The notes beneath the pieces are model-generated. The model saw only the letters and a program-made list of their open reading frames with translations, was not told the origin of the DNA and searched no databases. Shown here piece after piece: positions 3,028-50,091 of a stretch of DNA of 64,000 nt. The stretch spans positions 311,647 through 375,646 of the forward strand of contig JACPTS010000001.1 of the NCBI GenBank assembly GCA_016192685.1, in the 5' to 3' direction. Source of the stretch: Candidatus Harrisonbacteria bacterium (GTDB lineage: Bacteria > Patescibacteriota > Minisyncoccia > UBA6257 > 02-FULL-45-10c). Position 1 is the stretch's first letter, and each line of letters begins with the position of its first letter. The position numbers were made by a program, and so were the translations under genes.

Positions 3028-3294
3028 TTATTTTTTTAATCCTAATTTTTTAATTAAAGTAGTATAAGTTTTTGAATTTCTCTTGGAGAGATAATCCAAT
3101 AACCTTTTTCTTTTGCCGACCATTTTTAATAGCCCTCTTCGGGAGAGGTTGTCTTTCCGGTGCTTTTTAAGGTGTCCGGTTAATTCTTCAATGTTTTTGG
3201 TTAAAAGCGCCACCTGTACCTGGGGTGAACCAGTGTCGGTCTCGTGCTCGCCGTGTTCTTTTAAAATATTCAATTTTTGCCTGGTAGTTAACAT
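3028..3294 (-). CDS. rpsO: 30S ribosomal protein S15
   Basis: 88 aa, typical S15 sequence ([39 protein letters not shown]). Confidence 0.9.
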
Positions 3295-3374: not shown

Positions 3375-4286
3375 ATGGCATCAATCGAAAAATCTTTAAA
3401 AGACTACCTGGATTATCTGGAAATTGAGAAAAATCGTTCGCCGAAAACGCGGGAGAATTACGAACGATATTTAAAAGCATTTATAAATTTTTCTAAAATT
3501 AAAAAGCCGGAAAAAATTACGGCGGAAAATATAAAAAACTTCCGGGCGCATTTGGCAAGAAAAGAAAATCTTAAGAAGCTGACACAAACTTATTACGCCA
3601 TTGCCATAAGGAACTTTTTAAAATATCTGATTAAAAACGATTACGAAGTTTTATCGCCGGACAAAATTGAATTGCCCAAAATCGCCCGACGGCAGATTGA
3701 TATTATTGAATACGCGGATTTGGAAAGGTTTTTAGCGGCGCCGGCGCAAAACACTTTGCGCGGCCTGCGGGACCGGGCGATTTTGGAAATGCTTTTTTCC
3801 ACCGGCCTCCGTATTTCCGAACTTTGTAATTTAGACCGCTATCTTAATTTAAATCGCGGAGAAATCACGGTTCGCGGTAAGGGTGAAAAATTAAGAGTGG
3901 TATTTTTGTCTGACCGCGCCAAAGCCGCGATAAAAAATTGGCTGGACAAACGCACCGATACTTTGGAACATTTGTTTATCAGCTTTTCTAAACAGACTTC
4001 GCCGCTTGCCCAGCCGAAAGTAATCGGAAAAATCACGCCGCGGGCAGTCCAGCGCTTGGTGGAATTTTATCGCCGCAAAGCCGGCATCGCCAAAAATATT
4101 ACTCCCCACCAACTTCGCCACCAATTTGCCACTGATTTATTGGTGAACGGCGCGGATTTGCGTTCGGTGCAGGAACTGCTTGGCCACAGCAATATCTCTA
4201 CTACCCAAATTTATACTCATCTTACCAATAAAGAATTGCGGGAAGTCCATAAATCTTTTCATGCCGCCCGCCGGAAGCGATATTGA
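3375..4286 (+). CDS. tyrosine site-specific recombinase, XerC/XerD family
   Basis: 303 aa; N-terminal SAM-like core-binding domain; catalytic R...K...HxLRH...Y (HQLRHQFATDL, GHSNISTTQIYTHL). Confidence 0.85.
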   Translation: MASIEKSLKDYLDYLEIEKNRSPKTRENYERYLKAFINFSKIKKPEKITAENIKNFRAHLARKENLKKLTQTYYAIAIRNFLKYLIKNDYEVLSPDKIELPKIARRQIDIIEYADLERFLAAPAQNTLRGLRDRAILEMLFSTGLRISELCNLDRYLNLNRGEITVRGKGEKLRVVFLSDRAKAAIKNWLDKRTDTLEHLFISFSKQTSPLAQPKVIGKITPRAVQRLVEFYRRKAGIAKNITPHQLRHQFATDLLVNGADLRSVQELLGHSNISTTQIYTHLTNKELREVHKSFHAARRKRY

Positions 4287-5896: not shown

Positions 5897-7380
5897 TACT
5901 TAGATAGAAGTTTATCTCCAACCTGGATTTTAATATCGGATTCAAAAATCAGCCCGCACTCATTGCCCTCATTCACGGCATTAACATCTTTTTTCCCTTG
6001 CTGAAGATTTAAAACTTTTCCCTTGCCGATAATTTCTTCGCCCCTTTGTATTTCCAGCCAGGATTTTATCCTAATCTGCCCGCGATTAACCCGGCCGCCG
6101 ATAGTTTGTTTGCCGCCCTTCGCGCCGAAAACGGCCAGGATTTCCAGCTCGCCGCTGTATTTGCTTTTGCCCATTTCCAAAAAGGTTTTCTCAATTCCTT
6201 CCACTAATTTATAAATAATTTCATCTGTTACTATAGTAATTTCCTGCGCCCGCGCTAAATTTTCCGCGGCTTTATTCGGTTTAGTCCGGAACCCTAAAAT
6301 CATCGCTTTGGTGGCGACGGCGTCTTTGATATCGCCATCGGTAATTTCCCCGACCGATTGGCCGATAACATCCAAAGTCTGATTTTCTTTAATTGGAATT
6401 TTTCGCAAAAGATCATGCAGGGCTTCCAATGAGCCGGCGACATCGGCTTTTAAAATTACTTTGATAGTCTGGGATTCTTTATTGCTGGTGTCTGAAGCCC
6501 CCAATTTTTTGGATGCCGTTTTAGTAACTTTTTTCAAGTCTTCTTCAGAAAGCTGGCCAGAAATAAATTCTTCGCCGATCTCCGGCAAACTTTCAAATCC
6601 TAAAATTACCGCCGGACTGGACGGCTGAAGTTCGGTTACCGGTTTTCCCAAAAAATTTTCTAAAATTTTTACCTTGCCTTTGGCGGTGGCAGTCGCAATA
6701 AGGTCTCCTTTTTTTAGTCCTCCGTCTTTTAAAATAACCGTGACTGTATTTCCTCGCTTATTGTCTAATTTTGCTTCTAAAATTACTCCGGCAGCCCGGT
6801 GTTCTGGATTATAATGAAGTTCTTCTAAGTCGGCAGTAAGCAAAATTAAATCTAGAAGCTCATTGATACCCTCGCCGGTTTTGGAAGAAACGCCTTGATG
6901 ACTGATATTGCCGCCATAACCTTCCAATAATACGCCGTTGGCGGTTAAATCATTTTTTACCCTTTCTAAATCCGCGTTTGGCTTGTCGGTTTTTGTCATT
7001 GCCACCACAAAAGGCGTTTCCGAATCTTGCAGGGCTTTCAAGGCTTCTTTGGTTTGCGGTTTTACCCCTTCGTCAGCGGCAACCACTAAAATTCCGACAT
7101 CTGCCACATGCGCGCCCCGAACCCGCATCTTGGAAAACGCCTCGTGTCCGGGAGTATCAATAAAAGTGATTTTTCGGCCGCCATGCTCAATTTCATAAGC
7201 GCCAACCGATTGAGTTATACCCCCGGCCTCTTTTAAGGCAACGTTAGTTTTTCGGACATAATCAAGCAAACTGGTTTTGCCGTGGTCAACATGCCCAACC
7301 ACTACTACCACCGGCGGGCGCTTTTCAGCCATAGGCTGATCCGCCTTCGGCGGAAAATTTTTCACATTTTCTTCATTCAT
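5896..7380 (-). CDS. infB: translation initiation factor IF-2 (short form lacking N-terminal domains)
   Basis: 494 aa; G-domain VVVVVGHVDHGKTSLLD, DTPGHEAF, NKxD; C-terminal beta-barrel domains. Confidence 0.9.
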   Translation of the reverse strand: MNEENVKNFPPKADQPMAEKRPPVVVVVGHVDHGKTSLLDYVRKTNVALKEAGGITQSVGAYEIEHGGRKITFIDTPGHEAFSKMRVRGAHVADVGILVVAADEGVKPQTKEALKALQDSETPFVVAMTKTDKPNADLERVKNDLTANGVLLEGYGGNISHQGVSSKTGEGINELLDLILLTADLEELHYNPEHRAAGVILEAKLDNKRGNTVTVILKDGGLKKGDLIATATAKGKVKILENFLGKPVTELQPSSPAVILGFESLPEIGEEFISGQLSEEDLKKVTKTASKKLGASDTSNKESQTIKVILKADVAGSLEALHDLLRKIPIKENQTLDVIGQSVGEITDGDIKDAVATKAMILGFRTKPNKAAENLARAQEITIVTDEIIYKLVEGIEKTFLEMGKSKYSGELEILAVFGAKGGKQTIGGRVNRGQIRIKSWLEIQRGEEIIGKGKVLNLQQGKKDVNAVNEGNECGLIFESDIKIQVGDKLLSK

Positions 7381-15110: not shown

Positions 15111-15262
15111 GATTCTCTACCTATATTTCTATCGGCACCGGCGTCGCTCCGCTCCAGCGGCGGAGCGCGCCTACGCCTCGCCGCGATTTTTGTTTCGCTT
15201 TGCGAAACAAACCAAGCAAATCGCGGCTCCGTAGTTGCCGTACGAAACATAGGCAGAGAATC
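15111..15262 (+). repeat. structured repeat element, copy A
   Basis: flanking inverted repeat gattctctacctat / ataggcagagaatc; core boxes TATCGGCACCGGCGTC - hairpin - GCGCCTACGCCTCGC - hairpin - GCTCCGTAGTTGCCGTACGA. Confidence 0.85.
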
Positions 15263-18786: not shown

Positions 18787-18790
18787 TTTA

Positions 18791-18934
18791 AAGCTCTATA
18801 TATCTTCCTACCGGCACCGGAGTCCGCTTGCTCCAGCGGCAAGCGGCTCCTACGCCTCGCTCCGAAATTTTTGCTTCGCGAAAACCAAGCATTTCGGAGC
18901 TCCGTAGTTGCCGTACGAAAGATATATAGAGCTT
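18791..18934 (+). repeat. structured repeat element, copy B
   Basis: perfect 16-bp flanking inverted repeat aagctctatatatctt / aagatatatagagctt; same three core boxes as copy A; nearly identical to copy G. Confidence 0.9.
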
Positions 18935-18945
18935 TTGAAAAATTT

Positions 18946-37202: not shown

Positions 37203-37263
37203 CCAACAGCCCCGCGCTTACATAGGCGGGGCTTTTGTTTTTTAAAAACCTCGCGTCAAACTG

Positions 37264-37295
37264 GTTAACAATATTACGATCGTAACATTGTTAAC
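37264..37295. repeat. 32-bp near-perfect palindrome GTTAACAATATTACGATCGTAACATTGTTAAC
   Basis: centre CGATCG, ends GTTAAC; second copy at 37915-37946. Confidence 0.8.
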
Positions 37296-37316
37296 TAAAA
37301 TAATTTATTCTTTTAT

Positions 37317-37889
37317 CTAATTTAATGACCCCTTTTTAATTACCCTAAAAATATGTATATAAGAAGTTAATTCGAGTTTTTCTATATCAAATAAAAAATC
37401 TTCTGGAATTTTATATTCTCCCGCCCACACACTTTTTTGCAGCATTTCAAATGCTAATAATTTTAATTGTTTTCTTAACCATATTCTTTTATATTTTAAT
37501 CTTTCCGGTATGTCAAAAATTATAAGATTTAAAGCACTATCTTTATGGGGTGCGTATAATCTTTTCGGAAAATAAGCAGTTTTGAATATTTTAATTTTTT
37601 CTAATTTTTGTATACCGTTTTTAGTAATTTGCCAATGCGATAACCCTTTTATTTTTTGTTTTTTTATAAAACCCTGTTTTTTAAGACGAGAAAGTAGGGC
37701 GAAAAAGCTTTTTTCTTGTAATCTTTCAATCTGTTTTTTATTTAGTTTTTCAGGATAAGTATAACCGTGCATTACTCGGCGCATTGCCTTGTAAGTTTTT
37801 TGATATCCAGGAATAATGTCGTCTATAAGTTCGGCGGTAACTAAAACTTTATGGCGCAATTTTTTTAATATAATTTCTGTTTGGGTCAT
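37317..37889 (-). CDS. hypothetical protein bracketed by two 32-bp palindromes
   Basis: 190 aa, Lys-rich, possible N-terminal winged-helix; no identifiable catalytic motif. Confidence 0.45.
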   Translation of the reverse strand: MTQTEIILKKLRHKVLVTAELIDDIIPGYQKTYKAMRRVMHGYTYPEKLNKKQIERLQEKSFFALLSRLKKQGFIKKQKIKGLSHWQITKNGIQKLEKIKIFKTAYFPKRLYAPHKDSALNLIIFDIPERLKYKRIWLRKQLKLLAFEMLQKSVWAGEYKIPEDFLFDIEKLELTSYIHIFRVIKKGSLN

Positions 37890-37914
37890 ACTTATATTTT
37901 ATTCATTAACGCTA

Positions 37915-37946
37915 GTTAACAACATTACGATCGTAATATTGTTAAC
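37915..37946. repeat. 32-bp palindrome copy 2 (GTTAACAACATTACGATCGTAATATTGTTAAC)
   Basis: located 26-57 nt upstream of the start of gene 37317..37889 (operator-like position). Confidence 0.8.
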
Positions 37947-37983
37947 TAATTAAAAATTAACGGAAAAACTAATTTCTTGATTT

Positions 37984-39861: not shown

Positions 39862-39890
39862 AAAGAAAAAGCCCCGTCAACTGGCCGCTT

Positions 39891-40037
39891 CGCTATACCT
39901 ATTTACCTACCGGCACCGGCGTCGGTCGCCTCCTGCGGGCGACCGCGCCTACGCCTCGCCGCCAAAAGTCCCGCATAGCGGGACACCAAGCTTTCGGCGG
40001 CTCCGTAGTTGCCGTACGATAAATAGGTATAGCTCGC
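39891..40037 (+). repeat. structured repeat element, copy C
   Basis: flanks cgctatacctatttac / gtaaataggtatagc; boxes TACCGGCACCGGCGTC, GCGCCTACGCCTCGCC, GCTCCGTAGTTGCCGTACGA; hairpin 2 = aaagtcccgcatagcgggacaccaag (shared with copy D). Confidence 0.9.
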
Positions 40038-42311: not shown

Positions 42312-42520
42312 ATTTCCCTCCTTTTTTGATCGGAATGTTCTGTTTTATATATTATTTCAATATCAAAAATAAATCAAGTTTTTGCTTTGTAAATTTTTTT
42401 AAATTATAGAAGGCCGCGTTAGCGACCTACATTATTATCTACAACTATCCCTCAAAGAAGTTGAAAATATATTTGATTTGGCTATGTGCCGTGCGGCAAC
42501 TATTTTAATTTGAATTTCTA

Positions 42521-42708
42521 GCCGCTCTGCCGAGTTGTCGTAGAGAAACTACGGAGCCCCAAAAAGATTGGTGTCCCGCCATGCGGGACTTTTTGGGGCG
42601 AGGCGTAGCGGGCTCGCGCCGCTGGAGCGCGAGAACCGCGGTTCTCATAGACAATTCGGCGGAGCGGCCGTCAAAAAATGCCGGTGCTGATAGACAAATA
42701 GACAGAGC
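42521..42708 (-). repeat. structured repeat element, copy D (inverted relative to C, with internal insertion)
   Basis: reverse complement contains TATCAGCACCGGC, CCGCTACGCCTCGCC, hairpin ccaaaaagtcccgcatggcgggacacc, GGCTCCGTAGTTTCTCTACGA, plus an extra segment ccgccgaattgtctatgag shared with copy E. Confidence 0.85.
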
Positions 42709-44884: not shown

Positions 44885-47353
44885 ATGACTGAAAAAGATA
44901 AAAAACTTAATACCGGAGTAGAAAAACGGGAAATTACCGAGGAGCTTCAGGAGTCTTATTTGGATTACGCCATGTCGGTAATTGTCGCCCGCGCCCTGCC
45001 GGATGTCCGGGACGGACTAAAACCGGTCCAGCGCCGGATTCTTTGGGCCATGTGGGACAGCGGCCTGACGCATTCGGCTAAATTTAAAAAATCCGCCAAT
45101 ATCGTCGGTGAAGTGCTTGGCAAATACCATCCGCACGGCGATTCTTCAGTATATGAAGCCATGGTCCGCATGGCGCAGGAATTTTCTCTCCGATATCCGC
45201 TGGTGGAAGGCCAGGGCAATTTCGGCAGTATTGACGGGGATTCGGCCGCCGCCTACCGCTACACCGAAGCCCGGCTTTCTAAATTAGCGGAAGAAATGCT
45301 GTTGGATATTGAAAAAGAAACCGTGGACTGGCTGCCGAATTATGACGCCAGCCGCCAAGAGCCGAAAGTCCTGCCGTCCAAAGTTCCGAATCTTTTATTA
45401 AACGGCACCGTGGGCATTGCCGTTGGCATGGCCACCAATATCCCGCCGCATAATTTAGGAGAAATCGTTGATGCCGCGCATCATCTGATTGATAATCCCA
45501 AAGCCACCATCAGCGATCTTATGAAATTCGTCCAGGGGCCGGATTTCCCGACTGGCGGAATTATTTATGATAAAAAGGCGATTGATGAAGCTTATGCTTC
45601 CGGCCATGGCGCGGTTACGGTCCGGGCGGTTGCCGAAGTAAAAGAAGAAAAAAAGGGGAAAAATGAAATTGAAATTACGGAAATTCCATATCAAGTGAAT
45701 AAAGCGGAGCTGATTATAAAAATCGCGGAACTGGTAACCGATAAAAAAATCCAGGGCATTCGGGACGTCCGGGATGAATCGGATAAAGACGGCCTGCGGA
45801 TTATAATTGAATTAAAAAATGACGCGGCGCCGCAAAAAATCCTGAATCAGCTTTATAATTACACCGATCTTCAGAAAAATTTCAATCTCAATATGATTGC
45901 CCTTGCTAAAAACGGGCTCCAGCCGGAGGTAATGTCCATTAAAGACATTTTAGCCGCTTATTTGGAACATCGGAAAGAAATTGTCCGGCGCCGGGCCGAG
46001 TTTGATTTGAAAAAAGCCGAGGAACGCGCCCATATTTTAATGGGGCTGCATAAAGCGCTGGGCGATATTGACCGGGTAATTTCTACAATTAAAAAATCAA
46101 AAGACAAAGAAGACGCCCATAAAAATTTAGTTGCGAAATTTAAATTCAGCGATTTACAGGCAACTGCCATTTTAGAAATGCGGCTTCAGACGCTGGCGGC
46201 CTTGGAACGGGAAAAAATTGAAGAAGAACTGAAAGAAAAGAAAAAATTGATTGAGGAATTACAGGCGCTTCTTAAAAGTCCGGCAAAAATTCTGAAAGTC
46301 ATAAAAGACGAGCTGAAAGAAATGAAAGAAAAATACGGCGATCAGCGCAAAACCAGGCTGGTTTCCGGCGGACTTAAAGATTTTAAAGAGGAAGATTTAG
46401 TGCCAAAAGAAGAAACGATTATCACTATGTCTCAAGGAGGTTATATTAAGCGCGTTCAGCCGTCATCTTTCAAATCCCAAAAACGCGGCGGCAAAGGCCT
46501 GATCGGTTCGGAGGTGGCGGAAGAAGATTTTTTGAGCCATTTTATGACCGCCAATACCCACGACAACCTTTTATTCTTTACCGAGCGCGGCCGGGTGTTC
46601 CAGACTAAAGTTTATGAAATTCCGGAGGCCAGCCGGATTGCCAAAGGAAAAGCCATCCATAATTTCCTGGAAATTCCTTTGGAAGAAAAATTAAGCGCGG
46701 TTATTGCTTATGCCGGCGAACATAAAACCAAAGAAGAGAAAAAATCCGCTCAAGGATATCTGGTGATGGTAACTAAAAACGGGCTGATTAAAAAAACCGC
46801 TTTAGCGGATTTTGCCAATGTCCGTCGCAATGGAATTATTGCGATTAAACTTAAAAAAGGTGACTTGCTCCAGTGGGTGCGGCTTTCTTCGGGGAACGAC
46901 CAAGTTACGCTCGCGACTGCCCAAGGCCAGGCGATTCGTTTTAAAGAATCCCAGCTCCGGCCAATGGGCCGGACTGCTTCCGGCGTCCGGGGAATCCGGA
47001 TTAGAAAAGGCGATTCCGTAGTGGCGCTTAATATCGTTACCAAAGAAAATGAAAAAGGCCAATTGCTTACCGTAATGGCCAATGGTTTTGGAAAACGGAC
47101 CCCGCTTTCCGAATACAAAGTGCAGGGCCGCGGCGGTTCAGGAATAAAAACTTCTAAAGTGACTTCTAAAACCGGTTTGGTAGTGGCTTCACCTCTTATC
47201 AACGTGGAAAAAGAAATCTTGGCGCTTTCCGCTAAAGGCCAGATTATCCGCACTCCGATTGAAAGCATCCGATTAAGCGGCCGCGCCACCCAAGGCGTCC
47301 GGATTATGAATGTCAAAGATAAGGACAAGGTGGTTGGTGTCATTTGTCTTTAA
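44885..47353 (+). CDS. gyrA: DNA gyrase subunit A
   Basis: 822 aa; [25 protein letters not shown]; active-site Tyr context; C-terminal beta-pinwheel repeats. Confidence 0.9.
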
Positions 47354-47395
47354 ATTTATTTCCTTGCCAGCATCAGCATTATTTTGAAATGCTGT

Positions 47396-47576
47396 TCCGC
47401 CGAATTGTCTACGAATTTTACTCGCCCTGCCTGTATTTCTGACGGCACAGCCCCGCTTTGCGGGGCTACGCCTCAACGCCAAAAATTTAGGCTACCATTA
47501 TGCGATCGCATAATGGTAGCCTAAATGCCGAGCTTTTGGCGTTTCCGTAGTTGCCGCACAAAACACAGGCAGAGCT
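47396..47576 (+). repeat. structured repeat element, copy E (variant)
   Basis: flanks ctgcctgt / acaggcag; box1 variant GACGGCACAG; GCTACGCCTCA; 66-nt perfect palindromic hairpin centred on gcgatcgc; box3 variant TTCCGTAGTTGCCGCACA; upstream segment ttccgccgaattgtctacgaa shared with D. Confidence 0.85.
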
Positions 47577-47651
47577 CGTTAAATTATTTATGGAATTTCT
47601 CCACGATAGCTTAACAAATCGGCAATAAATAAAAAAACGAAATAGAACTTC

Positions 47652-47678
47652 TTAGTTGCCGCACGACAGATAGGTAGC
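47652..47678 (+). repeat. truncated remnant of repeat-element 3' end
   Basis: cttagttgccgcacgacagataggtagc matches box 3 plus a flank-like tail. Confidence 0.5.
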
Positions 47679-47710
47679 TTACTTTAATGTCTATATTTTA
47701 GCGCGCGCTT

Positions 47711-47739
47711 GACAGAGCATTGGAAATATGATATACTAT
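47711..47739 (+). promoter_or_regulatory. consensus sigma70 promoter of the GC-rich cassette
   Basis: TTGACA - 17 nt - TATACT; SD aaaggaggt 8 nt before ATG 47781. Confidence 0.65.
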
Positions 47740-47780
47740 TTTTAAGCTGAAAAGTTGCACATTCATAAAGGAGGTATAAC

Positions 47781-48260
47781 ATGGGCATTTTGGTTCAAGG
47801 AATTCTCTGTTATGGATTCCGCATCAAGGACGAAGATGGTAACGAGGAAAACGTAACCATCAACTGGCTCCCCAAAGATCCAGACGGTGCTGAGGGGGAC
47901 TTCGAGGACTTTCTCGCTAAGCTGTTCGGCCTTAAAGAACCTGACAGTCAATACGACGAAAAGAGGTATGCCACAGACCCAGAGTATAAGAGGATGTGGA
48001 GCAGTTACTGGGAAAAGAAAAACAAGCTCGAAGAAGAGATTGGGGTAACCCTTGTTCATCACTGCTCTGGCGAACAGCGAATGTGTATCTTGGCTGTCAC
48101 GGAATCAGTGCGGGAAGCGAACTGGGGTGAGCCTGTCAATCTTGGTCAATCCATCACCGACAAGCAGACGGAGTGGCGAGAGAAACTTCGTGCCTTCTGC
48201 GAACGAGTGAATATCCAATTTGAAGAGCCTCAGCTTATCCTTTGCAGCTACTACGGATGA
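47781..48260 (+). CDS. hypothetical protein, compositionally foreign (GC-rich) cargo between repeat copies E and F
   Basis: 159 aa; codon usage (ctc, gac, aag, ggc) contrasts with the AT-rich host; no recognisable domain. Confidence 0.6.
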   Translation: MGILVQGILCYGFRIKDEDGNEENVTINWLPKDPDGAEGDFEDFLAKLFGLKEPDSQYDEKRYATDPEYKRMWSSYWEKKNKLEEEIGVTLVHHCSGEQRMCILAVTESVREANWGEPVNLGQSITDKQTEWREKLRAFCERVNIQFEEPQLILCSYYG

Positions 48261-48288
48261 GACTTTGGCAGTCGAATTGGAATCTCCA

Positions 48289-48336
48289 GGAGGCCAACCA
48301 GCGATAACATCAAGGTTGGCCTCTTTCTTTTTTAAA
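48289..48336 (+). terminator. intrinsic terminator of the GC-rich cassette
   Basis: ggaggccaacc-agcgataacatcaa-ggttggcctc + tttcttttttaaaattt. Confidence 0.8.
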
Positions 48337-48410
48337 ATTTCCCGCCAAAGCGAAAGCCAAGTCTGACTTGGCGAAAGCTGAGGCGGTTTTTATATTGAAT
48401 TAGATTAAGA

Positions 48411-48580
48411 GCTCCGCCTCTCTGTTGTGCGGCAACTACGGAGCCGCTAAAAGCTTGGCCTTCTACCTAACTATCTGACGATCGTCAGATAGTTAGGTAG
48501 AAGTTTTGGCAGCGAGGCGTAGGCGGCGCCGACCACAGGAGTCGGCGAACGCCGGTGCCGGTAAACAGAGAGGCGGAGCG
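48411..48580 (-). repeat. structured repeat element, copy F (inverted relative to E)
   Basis: perfect 16-bp flanks gctccgcctctctgtt / aacagagaggcggagc; reverse complement has TACCGGCACCGGCG, GCCTACGCCTCGC, 70-nt palindromic hairpin centred on gacgatcgtc, GCTCCGTAGTTGCCGCAC. Confidence 0.9.
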
Positions 48581-48600
48581 ATTTGTTGTATAATTAAAAT

Positions 48601-49911: not shown

Positions 49912-49925
49912 TTCGCGTTTCTTTC

Positions 49926-50065
49926 GCTTTGCTTATTTGCCTACCGGCACCGGCGTCGTTCCGCTCCTGCGGCGGAACGCGCCTACGCCTCGCTCCGAAA
50001 TTTTCGCTTCGCGAAAGCCAAGCATTTCGGAGCTCCGTAGTTGCCGTACGACAAACAAGCAAAGC
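49926..50065 (+). repeat. structured repeat element, copy G
   Basis: flanks gctttgcttatttg / caaacaagcaaagc; core nearly identical to copy B. Confidence 0.9.
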
Positions 50066-50091
50066 TTAATAATTTCATATATAATTAAATT

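Follow-up and report, generated by a model that had tools for sequence, protein, structure and literature searches.

A moron-like cassette carrying a member of a phage-shared protein family between gyrA and a substrate-binding protein gene in a Candidatus Harrisonbacteria chromosome

The chromosome of a Candidatus Harrisonbacteria bacterium (assembly GCA_016192685.1) carries, between gyrA and the gene for an ABC-transporter substrate-binding protein (SBP), an open reading frame (ORF) for an acidic 159-aa protein, hereafter ORF159, whose product is 100% identical to HYY86_01875. It was analysed within a 64,000-nt stretch of contig JACPTS010000001.1 (positions 311,647 to 375,646 of the forward strand), referred to below as the window, whose own numbering is used here. 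With moderate confidence, we interpret the segment from ~47700 to 48391 as a moron-like autonomous transcription unit of phage ancestry that was inserted outside a prophage. An original prediction, made from the sequence without database searches, had described a self-contained expression cassette with a horizontally acquired gene, delivered or captured by two flanking repeats (E and F). The cassette and the acquisition are borne out by the comparisons presented here; the role given to the repeats is not.

The site of insertion was compared with the loci around relatives of the SBP gene, which cover 11 relatives with SBP identities of 46-90% (loci are designated by L numbers). Eight of them are species-level relatives, in which SBP is 46-69% and gyrA 68-86% identical to the window genes, and in which the spacer between the two genes measures about 20-270 nt, or 563 nt in the case of L015. 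The three closer relatives possess spacers of 30 nt (L059/L060, SBP 90%), 21 nt (L061, 75%) and 19 nt (L062, 77%). The gene order S1, g43892, g44506, gyrA, SBP and pilin-like genes is conserved in the relatives, and gyrA directly precedes SBP in 11 out of 11, which answers a check proposed in the original prediction; none of the 11 spacers (19-563 nt) holds an ORF159 homologue. This is the opposite of what had been named beforehand as an argument against acquisition, namely the presence of the ORF at this site, free of repeats, in all relatives. In a blastn comparison with L059, where the flanking genes share 87-89% DNA identity with those of the window, the gyrA alignment stops at 47346 and the SBP alignment resumes at 48586, a block of 1239 nt (47347-48585) corresponding to 22 nt in L059. 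ORF159 is thus part of extra DNA between genes that are adjacent in relatives, and its flanks, gyrA and the SBP gene, belong to a conserved housekeeping neighbourhood, not to a phage or prophage.

The long spacer of L015 (607-1169) contains a different insert of 563 nt, in which a terminator-like hairpin and a GC-rich small minus-strand ORF are combined with a long inverted repeat immediately preceding SBP. The gyrA-SBP spacer may be a recurrent insertion site.

Codon usage also sets ORF159 apart from its surroundings. Its score on a measure similar to the codon adaptation index is 0.513, compared with 0.707 ± 0.033 for the 50 other ORFs of the window (z −5.9), making it the most deviant of the 51; when the protein was re-coded 20000 times with host codon frequencies, none of the simulations scored as low (0/20000; z −7.3). 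ORF159 prefers AAG, GAC, AAC, ATC and CTC, as opposed to AAA, GAT, AAT, ATT and TTA in the host, and at third codon positions its GC content (GC3; 0.562) exceeds that of every other window ORF (z about +2). Uniform codon usage, which the original prediction had named as a refuting outcome, was accordingly not observed, ORF159 being the strongest outlier, and its composition is unlike that of the neighbours in both codon usage and GC3. Total GC, in contrast, is raised only mildly (0.49 versus a mean of 0.413 ± 0.051 for the other ORFs). Describing the gene as GC-rich, or as sharply different in GC content, was therefore an overstatement, because gyrA (0.463), the SBP gene (0.484) and another gene (0.519) have similar values.

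Absence from the 11 related loci, foreign codon usage and the occurrence of relatives in phages and at unrelated chromosomal sites (see below) together provide strong support for horizontal acquisition of ORF159. The converse explanation, an ancestral host gene that was lost from the relatives, would agree with the fact that ORF159 is intact and under purifying selection. Nevertheless, it is strongly disfavoured and in our opinion hardly credible: the gene is missing in 11 of 11 relatives spanning 46-90% SBP identity, its codon usage is foreign and its homologues reside in unrelated contexts.

ORF159 is the single ORF between a predicted near-consensus sigma-70 promoter and two predicted intrinsic terminators (Table 1), so that the unit has the promoter and factor-independent terminator of its own that are expected of a moron. 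The ORF, the consensus promoter, the Shine-Dalgarno site and the strong intrinsic terminator described in the original prediction were all recovered, the last in the form of two hairpins, each followed by a T-run. Terminator 1 consists of a 12-bp GC-rich stem at 48288-48325 with a T-run that reaches 48335; the second hairpin proper spans 48342-48386 and is followed by TTTTT. Eight sites in the 64-kb window, that of ORF159 among them, match the sigma-70 consensus in at least 11 of 12 positions, so this type of promoter is already present in the genome.

The same anatomy is found at other loci, which further substantiates the self-contained cassette. A word-indexed search retrieved only 9 relatives of the ORF159 protein (45-66% identity), none with a named function, and a full profile search retrieved 1611 cluster representatives (50% identity clusters) at E ≤1e-3, 548 of them at ≤1e-10; family members are mostly 130-165 aa long. 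Members of the close subfamily are solo genes in unrelated chromosomal contexts: beside a permuted tmRNA gene and ftsW (L001), after tRNA-Leu genes (L003, L004 and L005), upstream of a nusA-like gene (L021) and in a repeat-rich stretch (L006). At L001, L003, L004, L006 and L021, the gene follows a near-consensus promoter of the TTGACA/TATAAT type, with a leader and a Shine-Dalgarno site that is likewise strong. A hairpin-T terminator follows at L001, L003, L006 and L021; none was seen at L004, where a second gene follows directly. The L001 and L006 copies share 90% identity over 645 bp, a stretch that starts at the −35 box and stops shortly after the terminator; outside it they have nothing in common. 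DNA homology with the window extends over terminator 1 in L020 (to 48333) and in L003 (to 48350). Given these bounds and the shared terminator, the recurring unit appears to be the transcription unit itself, from promoter to terminator; the homology delimits it directly for L001 and L006, and the same probably applies to the window. By eye, the last ~30 nt of L020 resembled a 23S rRNA gene at its 5' end, a reading that was not confirmed by Rfam, too little of the gene being present on the contig, and that was not used.

Two further observations concern the loci of the close homologues. The tmRNA gene at L001 (75-445) fits the permuted two-piece alpha-type model RF01849 with 129.6 bits, and because of this match the close cassette subfamily may extend beyond Patescibacteria. 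At L006, an unrelated local repeat, ACAAAGGTTCGAAC...CCAGCGGAGC, is dense on both sides of the cassette gene (778-810, 1672-1704, 1994-2026 and 2240-2272).

Distant members of the family lie inside arrays of small unannotated ORFs on phage-like contigs, namely L002 (with ThyX, a sigma factor and a helix-turn-helix protein), L007 (187 kb) and L008 (90 kb, with phage endonuclease I and lysozyme). Others are encoded by deposited phages, where they are labelled 'hypothetical protein' every time: Rctr197k and the ~147-kb Rhodobacteraceae phages DSS3P8, vB_RpoS-V10, RcXuper, MD18 and DSS3_MAL1. The best structural match in BFVD to the predicted fold of the ORF159 protein has a template modelling (TM) score of 0.79/0.85. 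Judged from these phage-like contigs, the deposited phages and the BFVD match, the family is probably of phage ancestry. No family protein was found on plasmids in PLSDB, and a scan of viral contigs with patterns of the close subfamily gave no relative, the wide alignment being too diverse for pattern building.

Phage ancestry of the family could also mean that the block is the remnant of a prophage or integrative element, a larger phage-derived element from which all but one gene was deleted. Beyond the distant members in phage genomes, this is favoured by the position of close homologues next to tmRNA or tRNA-Leu genes, which are classic integration sites. However, neither an integrase nor att-like direct repeats nor any phage gene besides ORF159 is present in the 1.2-kb block, gyrA does not belong to the tRNA-type targets, and homology bounds at promoter and terminator, as in L001 and L006, fit a unit moving alone better than random deletion. 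We consider a remnant of this kind unlikely.

Table 1. Features of the gyrA-SBP spacer and copies of the repeat family in the 64-kb window
Feature	Coordinates	Strand	Evidence
End of gyrA	47353
Block present in the window, missing in the closest relative L059	47347..48585		blastn against L059; 1239 nt versus 22 nt there
D-type repeat copy, 5' fragment, 25 nt, GTTCCGCCGAATTGTCTACGA	47396..47420	+	inverted match to copy D; copy alignment
Repeat copy E, full length; a short hairpin in place of hairpin 1, with hairpin 2 expanded around GCGATCGC	47421..47585	+	nhmmer, E 1.4e-24
88-nt piece: D-type 3' end, 32-nt spacer and box-3 fragment	47596..47683	+	86% identity to L059 935-1017
Sigma-70-type promoter, TTGACA-17-TATACT, TG upstream of the −10 box	47709..47737	+	11/12 consensus match
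Shine-Dalgarno site AAAGGAGGT, 5 nt before ATG	47767..47775	+	read from sequence
ORF159, acidic 159-aa protein of a large uncharacterised family including phage proteins	47781..48260	+	ORF call, searches
Intrinsic terminator 1, GGAGGCCAACC...GGTTGGCCTC then T-run	48288..48335	+	fold dG −20.8 kcal/mol; sequence shared with L020 and L003 cassettes
Second hairpin then T-run (back-up terminator)	48342..48391	+	dG −25.8 kcal/mol; part also picked up by the scan that gave the promoter
Repeat copy F, full length; hairpin 2 expanded around ACGATCGT	48408..48582	-	nhmmer, E 3.2e-34
Native SBP-gene promoter motif TTGTATAAT, 6 nt before the SBP ATG; right edge of the insertion	48586..48594	+	conserved in relatives
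Start of SBP gene	48601
Repeat copy	15111-15262	+
Repeat copy	18790-18935	+
Repeat copy	39889-40036	+
Repeat copy	42521-42668	-
Repeat copy G	49923-50068	+

At the right edge of the insertion, repeat F directly abuts the TTGTATAAT motif of the SBP gene, which has no Shine-Dalgarno site (48586-48600). The motif is kept in L059 (5975-6000), L061, L062, L012, L013 and L014. Its conservation, its position 6 nt before the ATG and the lack of a Shine-Dalgarno site suggest that the SBP gene mRNA is leaderless.

The repeats on either side of the cassette are genuine copies of a family of ~140 nt, as had been claimed, E in plus and F in minus orientation. With nhmmer, the family has 7 copies in the window and occurs at 35 further loci from groundwater metagenomes (L024-L058), for 46 hits overall. 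The idea that E and F delivered the gene, as the inverted ends of a composite transposon flanked by miniature inverted-repeat transposable elements (MITEs) and arriving in one step, draws on the arrangement of the two copies, which are inverted with their 5' ends outward and which are both absent from L059 along with the rest of the block. In addition, E and F are the only copies in the window with long, expanded hairpins centred on CGATCG and with GCCGCAC, features for which they had been called a matched pair. A comparable layout exists at L033 (3117-4256), where a small AT-rich minus-strand ORF (3596-3982, 128 aa), with no Pfam match and a promoter-like site of its own, lies between two inverted copies of the same family (+ 3117-3257 and − 4134-4256); the interval also contains a long hairpin element (~3500-3596) and a box-3 fragment (~4079-4105).

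The pairing itself, however, is weak. With an identity of only 66-74% and membership of different subfamilies, E and F are not sister copies: F is nearer to G and C (79-80%) and shares its hairpin-1 type with L055 and L029, while the subfamily of E is shared with L057, L032, L054, L033 and L047. GCCGCAC is the majority state across 38 metagenome copies, hence the family consensus and not a shared derived state, and palindromes similar to the CGATCG-centred hairpin stand alone at 37261 and 37912. Direct reading of the flanks, to the left of 47396 or 47421 and to the right of 48582, showed no target-site duplication. At least three repeat pieces, nested in one another, make up the mosaic of the left flank, and several separate events are implied. 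The stretch 47596-47679, for example, shares 86% identity with L059 935-1017, which in that genome adjoins the D-type copy of the S1 spacer; together with the D-type 5' fragment, this stretch indicates that E lies inside the remains of a D-type compound unit. The truncated box-3 remnant noted in the original prediction is also real (47653-47683). Since single copies fill neighbouring spacers as well (G after the SBP gene, D and C upstream, and also B and A), and all of these stand alone, bracketing as such is weak evidence. Finally, copies of this repeat family are missing from all 8 other cassette loci, an ORF159 homologue is missing from all 35 metagenome loci with repeats, and the repeat pattern was not found in viral contigs. 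Delivery or capture of the gene by the repeats is thus not borne out and we regard it as unlikely, favouring instead, from the sequences compared, several independent insertions of repeats around a newly made pair of spacers. The repeats themselves are probably elements of the host lineage.

Their fold is predicted to be branched and three-helical, with an outer stem, a TACCGGCA/TGCCGTA stem, an internal hairpin and a second, variable hairpin. Among 38 copies, 37 of the 45 predicted pairs are changed on both sides. The internal hairpin has a stem of 7-8 bp that is wholly different between copies and a conserved TCCWGCG loop. A.C mismatches outnumber G.U in the pairs (50 versus 12), a bias suggesting that folding takes place in the complementary strand. 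Neither E nor F has an Rfam match at the gathering threshold or the E-value threshold.

Other sites in the window and its relatives illustrate the behaviour of this family. In L039 (SBP 75%), a repeat (1462-1607) occupies the same site as G, with almost identical outer stems and an entirely different internal hairpin, while L059 (SBP 90%) has only 14 nt at that site (7311-7326); this comparison implies that hairpins are swapped and that a single site has seen either loss or repeated insertion of copies. The spacer downstream of S1, which holds a D-type unit (42482-42701), is inverted relative to L059 758-1011, and a truncated copy in opposite orientation is found at L059 1101-1191. Two near-identical perfect palindromes of 38 nt centred on CGATCG (37261-37298 and 37912-37949), which resemble the expanded hairpin of copy F (68% identity), flank a gene on the minus strand (37317-37889, GC 0.279) that is very AT-rich and encodes a PaaX-like protein, in which a winged helix is combined with a Cas2-like domain (PF20803, E 1.8e-11).

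Turning to the product, the original statement that the protein has no recognisable domain was confirmed. Searches of Pfam, PHROGs, PADLOC, NCBIfam and PDB sequences with the single protein and with 65-110 family members gave nothing significant, and the family profile had no match in the PDB. The AlphaFold2 model of the protein has a predicted local distance difference test (pLDDT) score of 94.3, and for this high-confidence prediction no solved fold was matched; ORF159 could thus be placed in no curated family or solved fold, by sequence or by structure. The family is acidic (median isoelectric point (pI) 4.47, median net charge −14), the charge being concentrated in a variable loop at residues 15-60. 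G12 is the sole invariant residue; at least 90% of members keep C95, R115, G116, C140 and S156. The ratio of nonsynonymous to synonymous substitution rates (dN/dS) between cassette copies is 0.12-0.21, from which it follows that the protein is maintained by purifying selection.

Among the functions proposed in the original prediction, a toxin is unlikely, given the near-consensus promoter, the lack of a partner gene and the low dN/dS; an anti-defence or other accessory role is possible. More generally, a solo toxin or selfish nuclease, such as a free-standing gene similar to those of homing endonucleases and targeting the flanks of conserved genes, would be in line with the cassettes adjoining gyrA, tmRNA, tRNA-Leu and nusA-like genes. 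We hold it to be very unlikely all the same: no nuclease or toxin family was matched in Pfam, PADLOC, NCBIfam or PDB, no acidic or histidine catalytic residue is conserved family-wide, strong acidity would be unusual for a DNA-binding nuclease, and expression of a toxin from such a promoter without an antitoxin partner would kill the host. Toxin-antitoxin modules are two-gene operons, whereas the unit has a single ORF with no toxin match in PADLOC or Pfam. Two narrower candidates were dropped. One family member matched SsdA_C at E 0.002, but the HxE and PCxxC motifs of a deaminase are not conserved, and a GIY-YIG or other nuclease is supported by neither motif nor fold.

We infer instead that ORF159 encodes a binding protein with constitutive expression. 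Among the small acidic early proteins with which phages inhibit proteins of the host are DNA mimics like Ocr or ArdA and many anti-CRISPR proteins. The ORF159 protein is likewise small, strongly acidic and probably cytoplasmic, the phage members of its family are encoded in small-ORF arrays, and it displays no evident catalytic motif.

The moron-like unit could accordingly be pictured as follows. The near-consensus promoter would drive a constitutive transcript of ~600 nt starting at ~47744, with a leader of ~37 nt, and the tandem terminators would end it before F and so insulate the downstream SBP gene, which has its own promoter motif. The transferable unit would be the stretch from promoter to terminator. 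It entered the gyrA-SBP spacer after the split from the relative that is 87-89% identical in DNA, probably by illegitimate or some other recombination and not via the flanking repeats. E, F and the D-type fragments would be ~140-nt host repeats that colonise spacers, nest in one another and accumulated here in separate events. The product is predicted to be a compact alpha/beta protein, cytoplasmic and strongly acidic and without a match to any known fold, which, by analogy with small acidic phage early proteins, may bind a cellular or phage macromolecule; as to the host, one can only guess at a benefit via phage exclusion or modulation of defence.

Several points weigh against parts of this interpretation. 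Its promoter and terminators are predictions from sequence, and homology does not set the left edge of the cassette in the window, as L020 ends 60 nt upstream of its ATG and the leader of L003 differs. With the whole 1239-nt block, repeats included, missing from L059, arrival of E, cassette and F in a single step is compatible with the comparison, and the layout at L033 hints that repeat clusters and inserted genes may be linked in some way. At three positions that are nearly invariant in the family, the window protein has another residue (S4 to L, P100 to R and R115 to W), and for this reason it may be drifting. Conservation of C95, R115, C140 and S156 in at least 90% of members makes an enzymatic role possible for the family, and the binding function is one that we only infer.

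A bolder version would treat the promoter-to-terminator units as distinct mobile cassettes that pass between phages and chromosomes without a linked recombinase and land beside conserved genes, possibly using host repeat clusters (E/F, L033) as landing pads, with the protein as a phage-host conflict factor of new fold; we consider this version improbable. For the question of how morons and single-gene cassettes move, one family here provides several independent chromosomal insertions in which homology ends exactly at promoter and terminator, and the window adds a clean comparison of an empty and a filled site in an uncultivated lineage of Patescibacteria, whereby the boundaries of the mobile unit become testable. 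A large phage-borne family with a confident predicted fold and no known match is also a reasonable target for work on phage-host conflict, and the Rhodobacteraceae phages that carry it give access to cultivable phage-host pairs. The flanking repeats are a separate lead, being a strongly covarying 140-nt element without Rfam match.

Among known systems, an integron gene cassette with attC was considered and dropped, as ORF159 has its own promoter and terminators and the repeats are dispersed among housekeeping genes and form no array. The layout recalls a composite transposon in that two inverted copies of the same family flank a cargo gene, but E and F are diverged members of different subfamilies and not closely related ends, no target duplication was seen at their ends, and the cargo occurs elsewhere without these repeats; no second composite was found at the 8 cassette loci, the 35 repeat loci or the 64 kb of host genome.

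For the repeats, as opposed to the gene, the appropriate comparison is with repetitive extragenic palindromic (REP) elements, bacterial interspersed mosaic elements (BIMEs), REPINs and bacterial MITEs (PMC3116915, PMC2817692, PMC3184786). As in these elements, the copies are intergenic, multicopy and palindromic, their stems are kept by compensatory change, and they occur in either orientation, in nested or mosaic clusters, and are specific to one lineage. They differ in being ~140 nt long and branched, with three helices and a swappable internal hairpin, compared with 20-40 nt for a REP or with a simple doublet, and in stemming from a Harrisonbacteria-like lineage of Patescibacteria. No transposase, of the RAYT type or other, turned up within the 64 kb of the 608-kb contig, not all window ORFs having been screened.

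For the gene, the closest parallel is with the morons of phages, a kind of autonomous transcription unit that was originally reported from HK97 and HK022 (for a review, see Cumby, Davidson and Maxwell 2012, PMC3594210). Morons are described as independent units with their own promoter and terminator, deviant composition and horizontal spread (PMC3594210). Like a moron, ORF159 is a lone gene that has been inserted between genes lying side by side in relatives; it has its own putative promoter and terminator and a composition unlike that of its neighbours, appears to have spread horizontally and has relatives in phage genomes. It differs from morons in residing among housekeeping genes of a bacterial chromosome, as do its close homologues, likewise solo at several chromosomal sites; in the carrier phages, by contrast, the family gene lies within ordinary small-ORF arrays and does not stand out as an insertion. 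The ORF159 unit is therefore best described as a moron-like cassette outside a prophage, carrying a member of a large uncharacterised family shared with phages.

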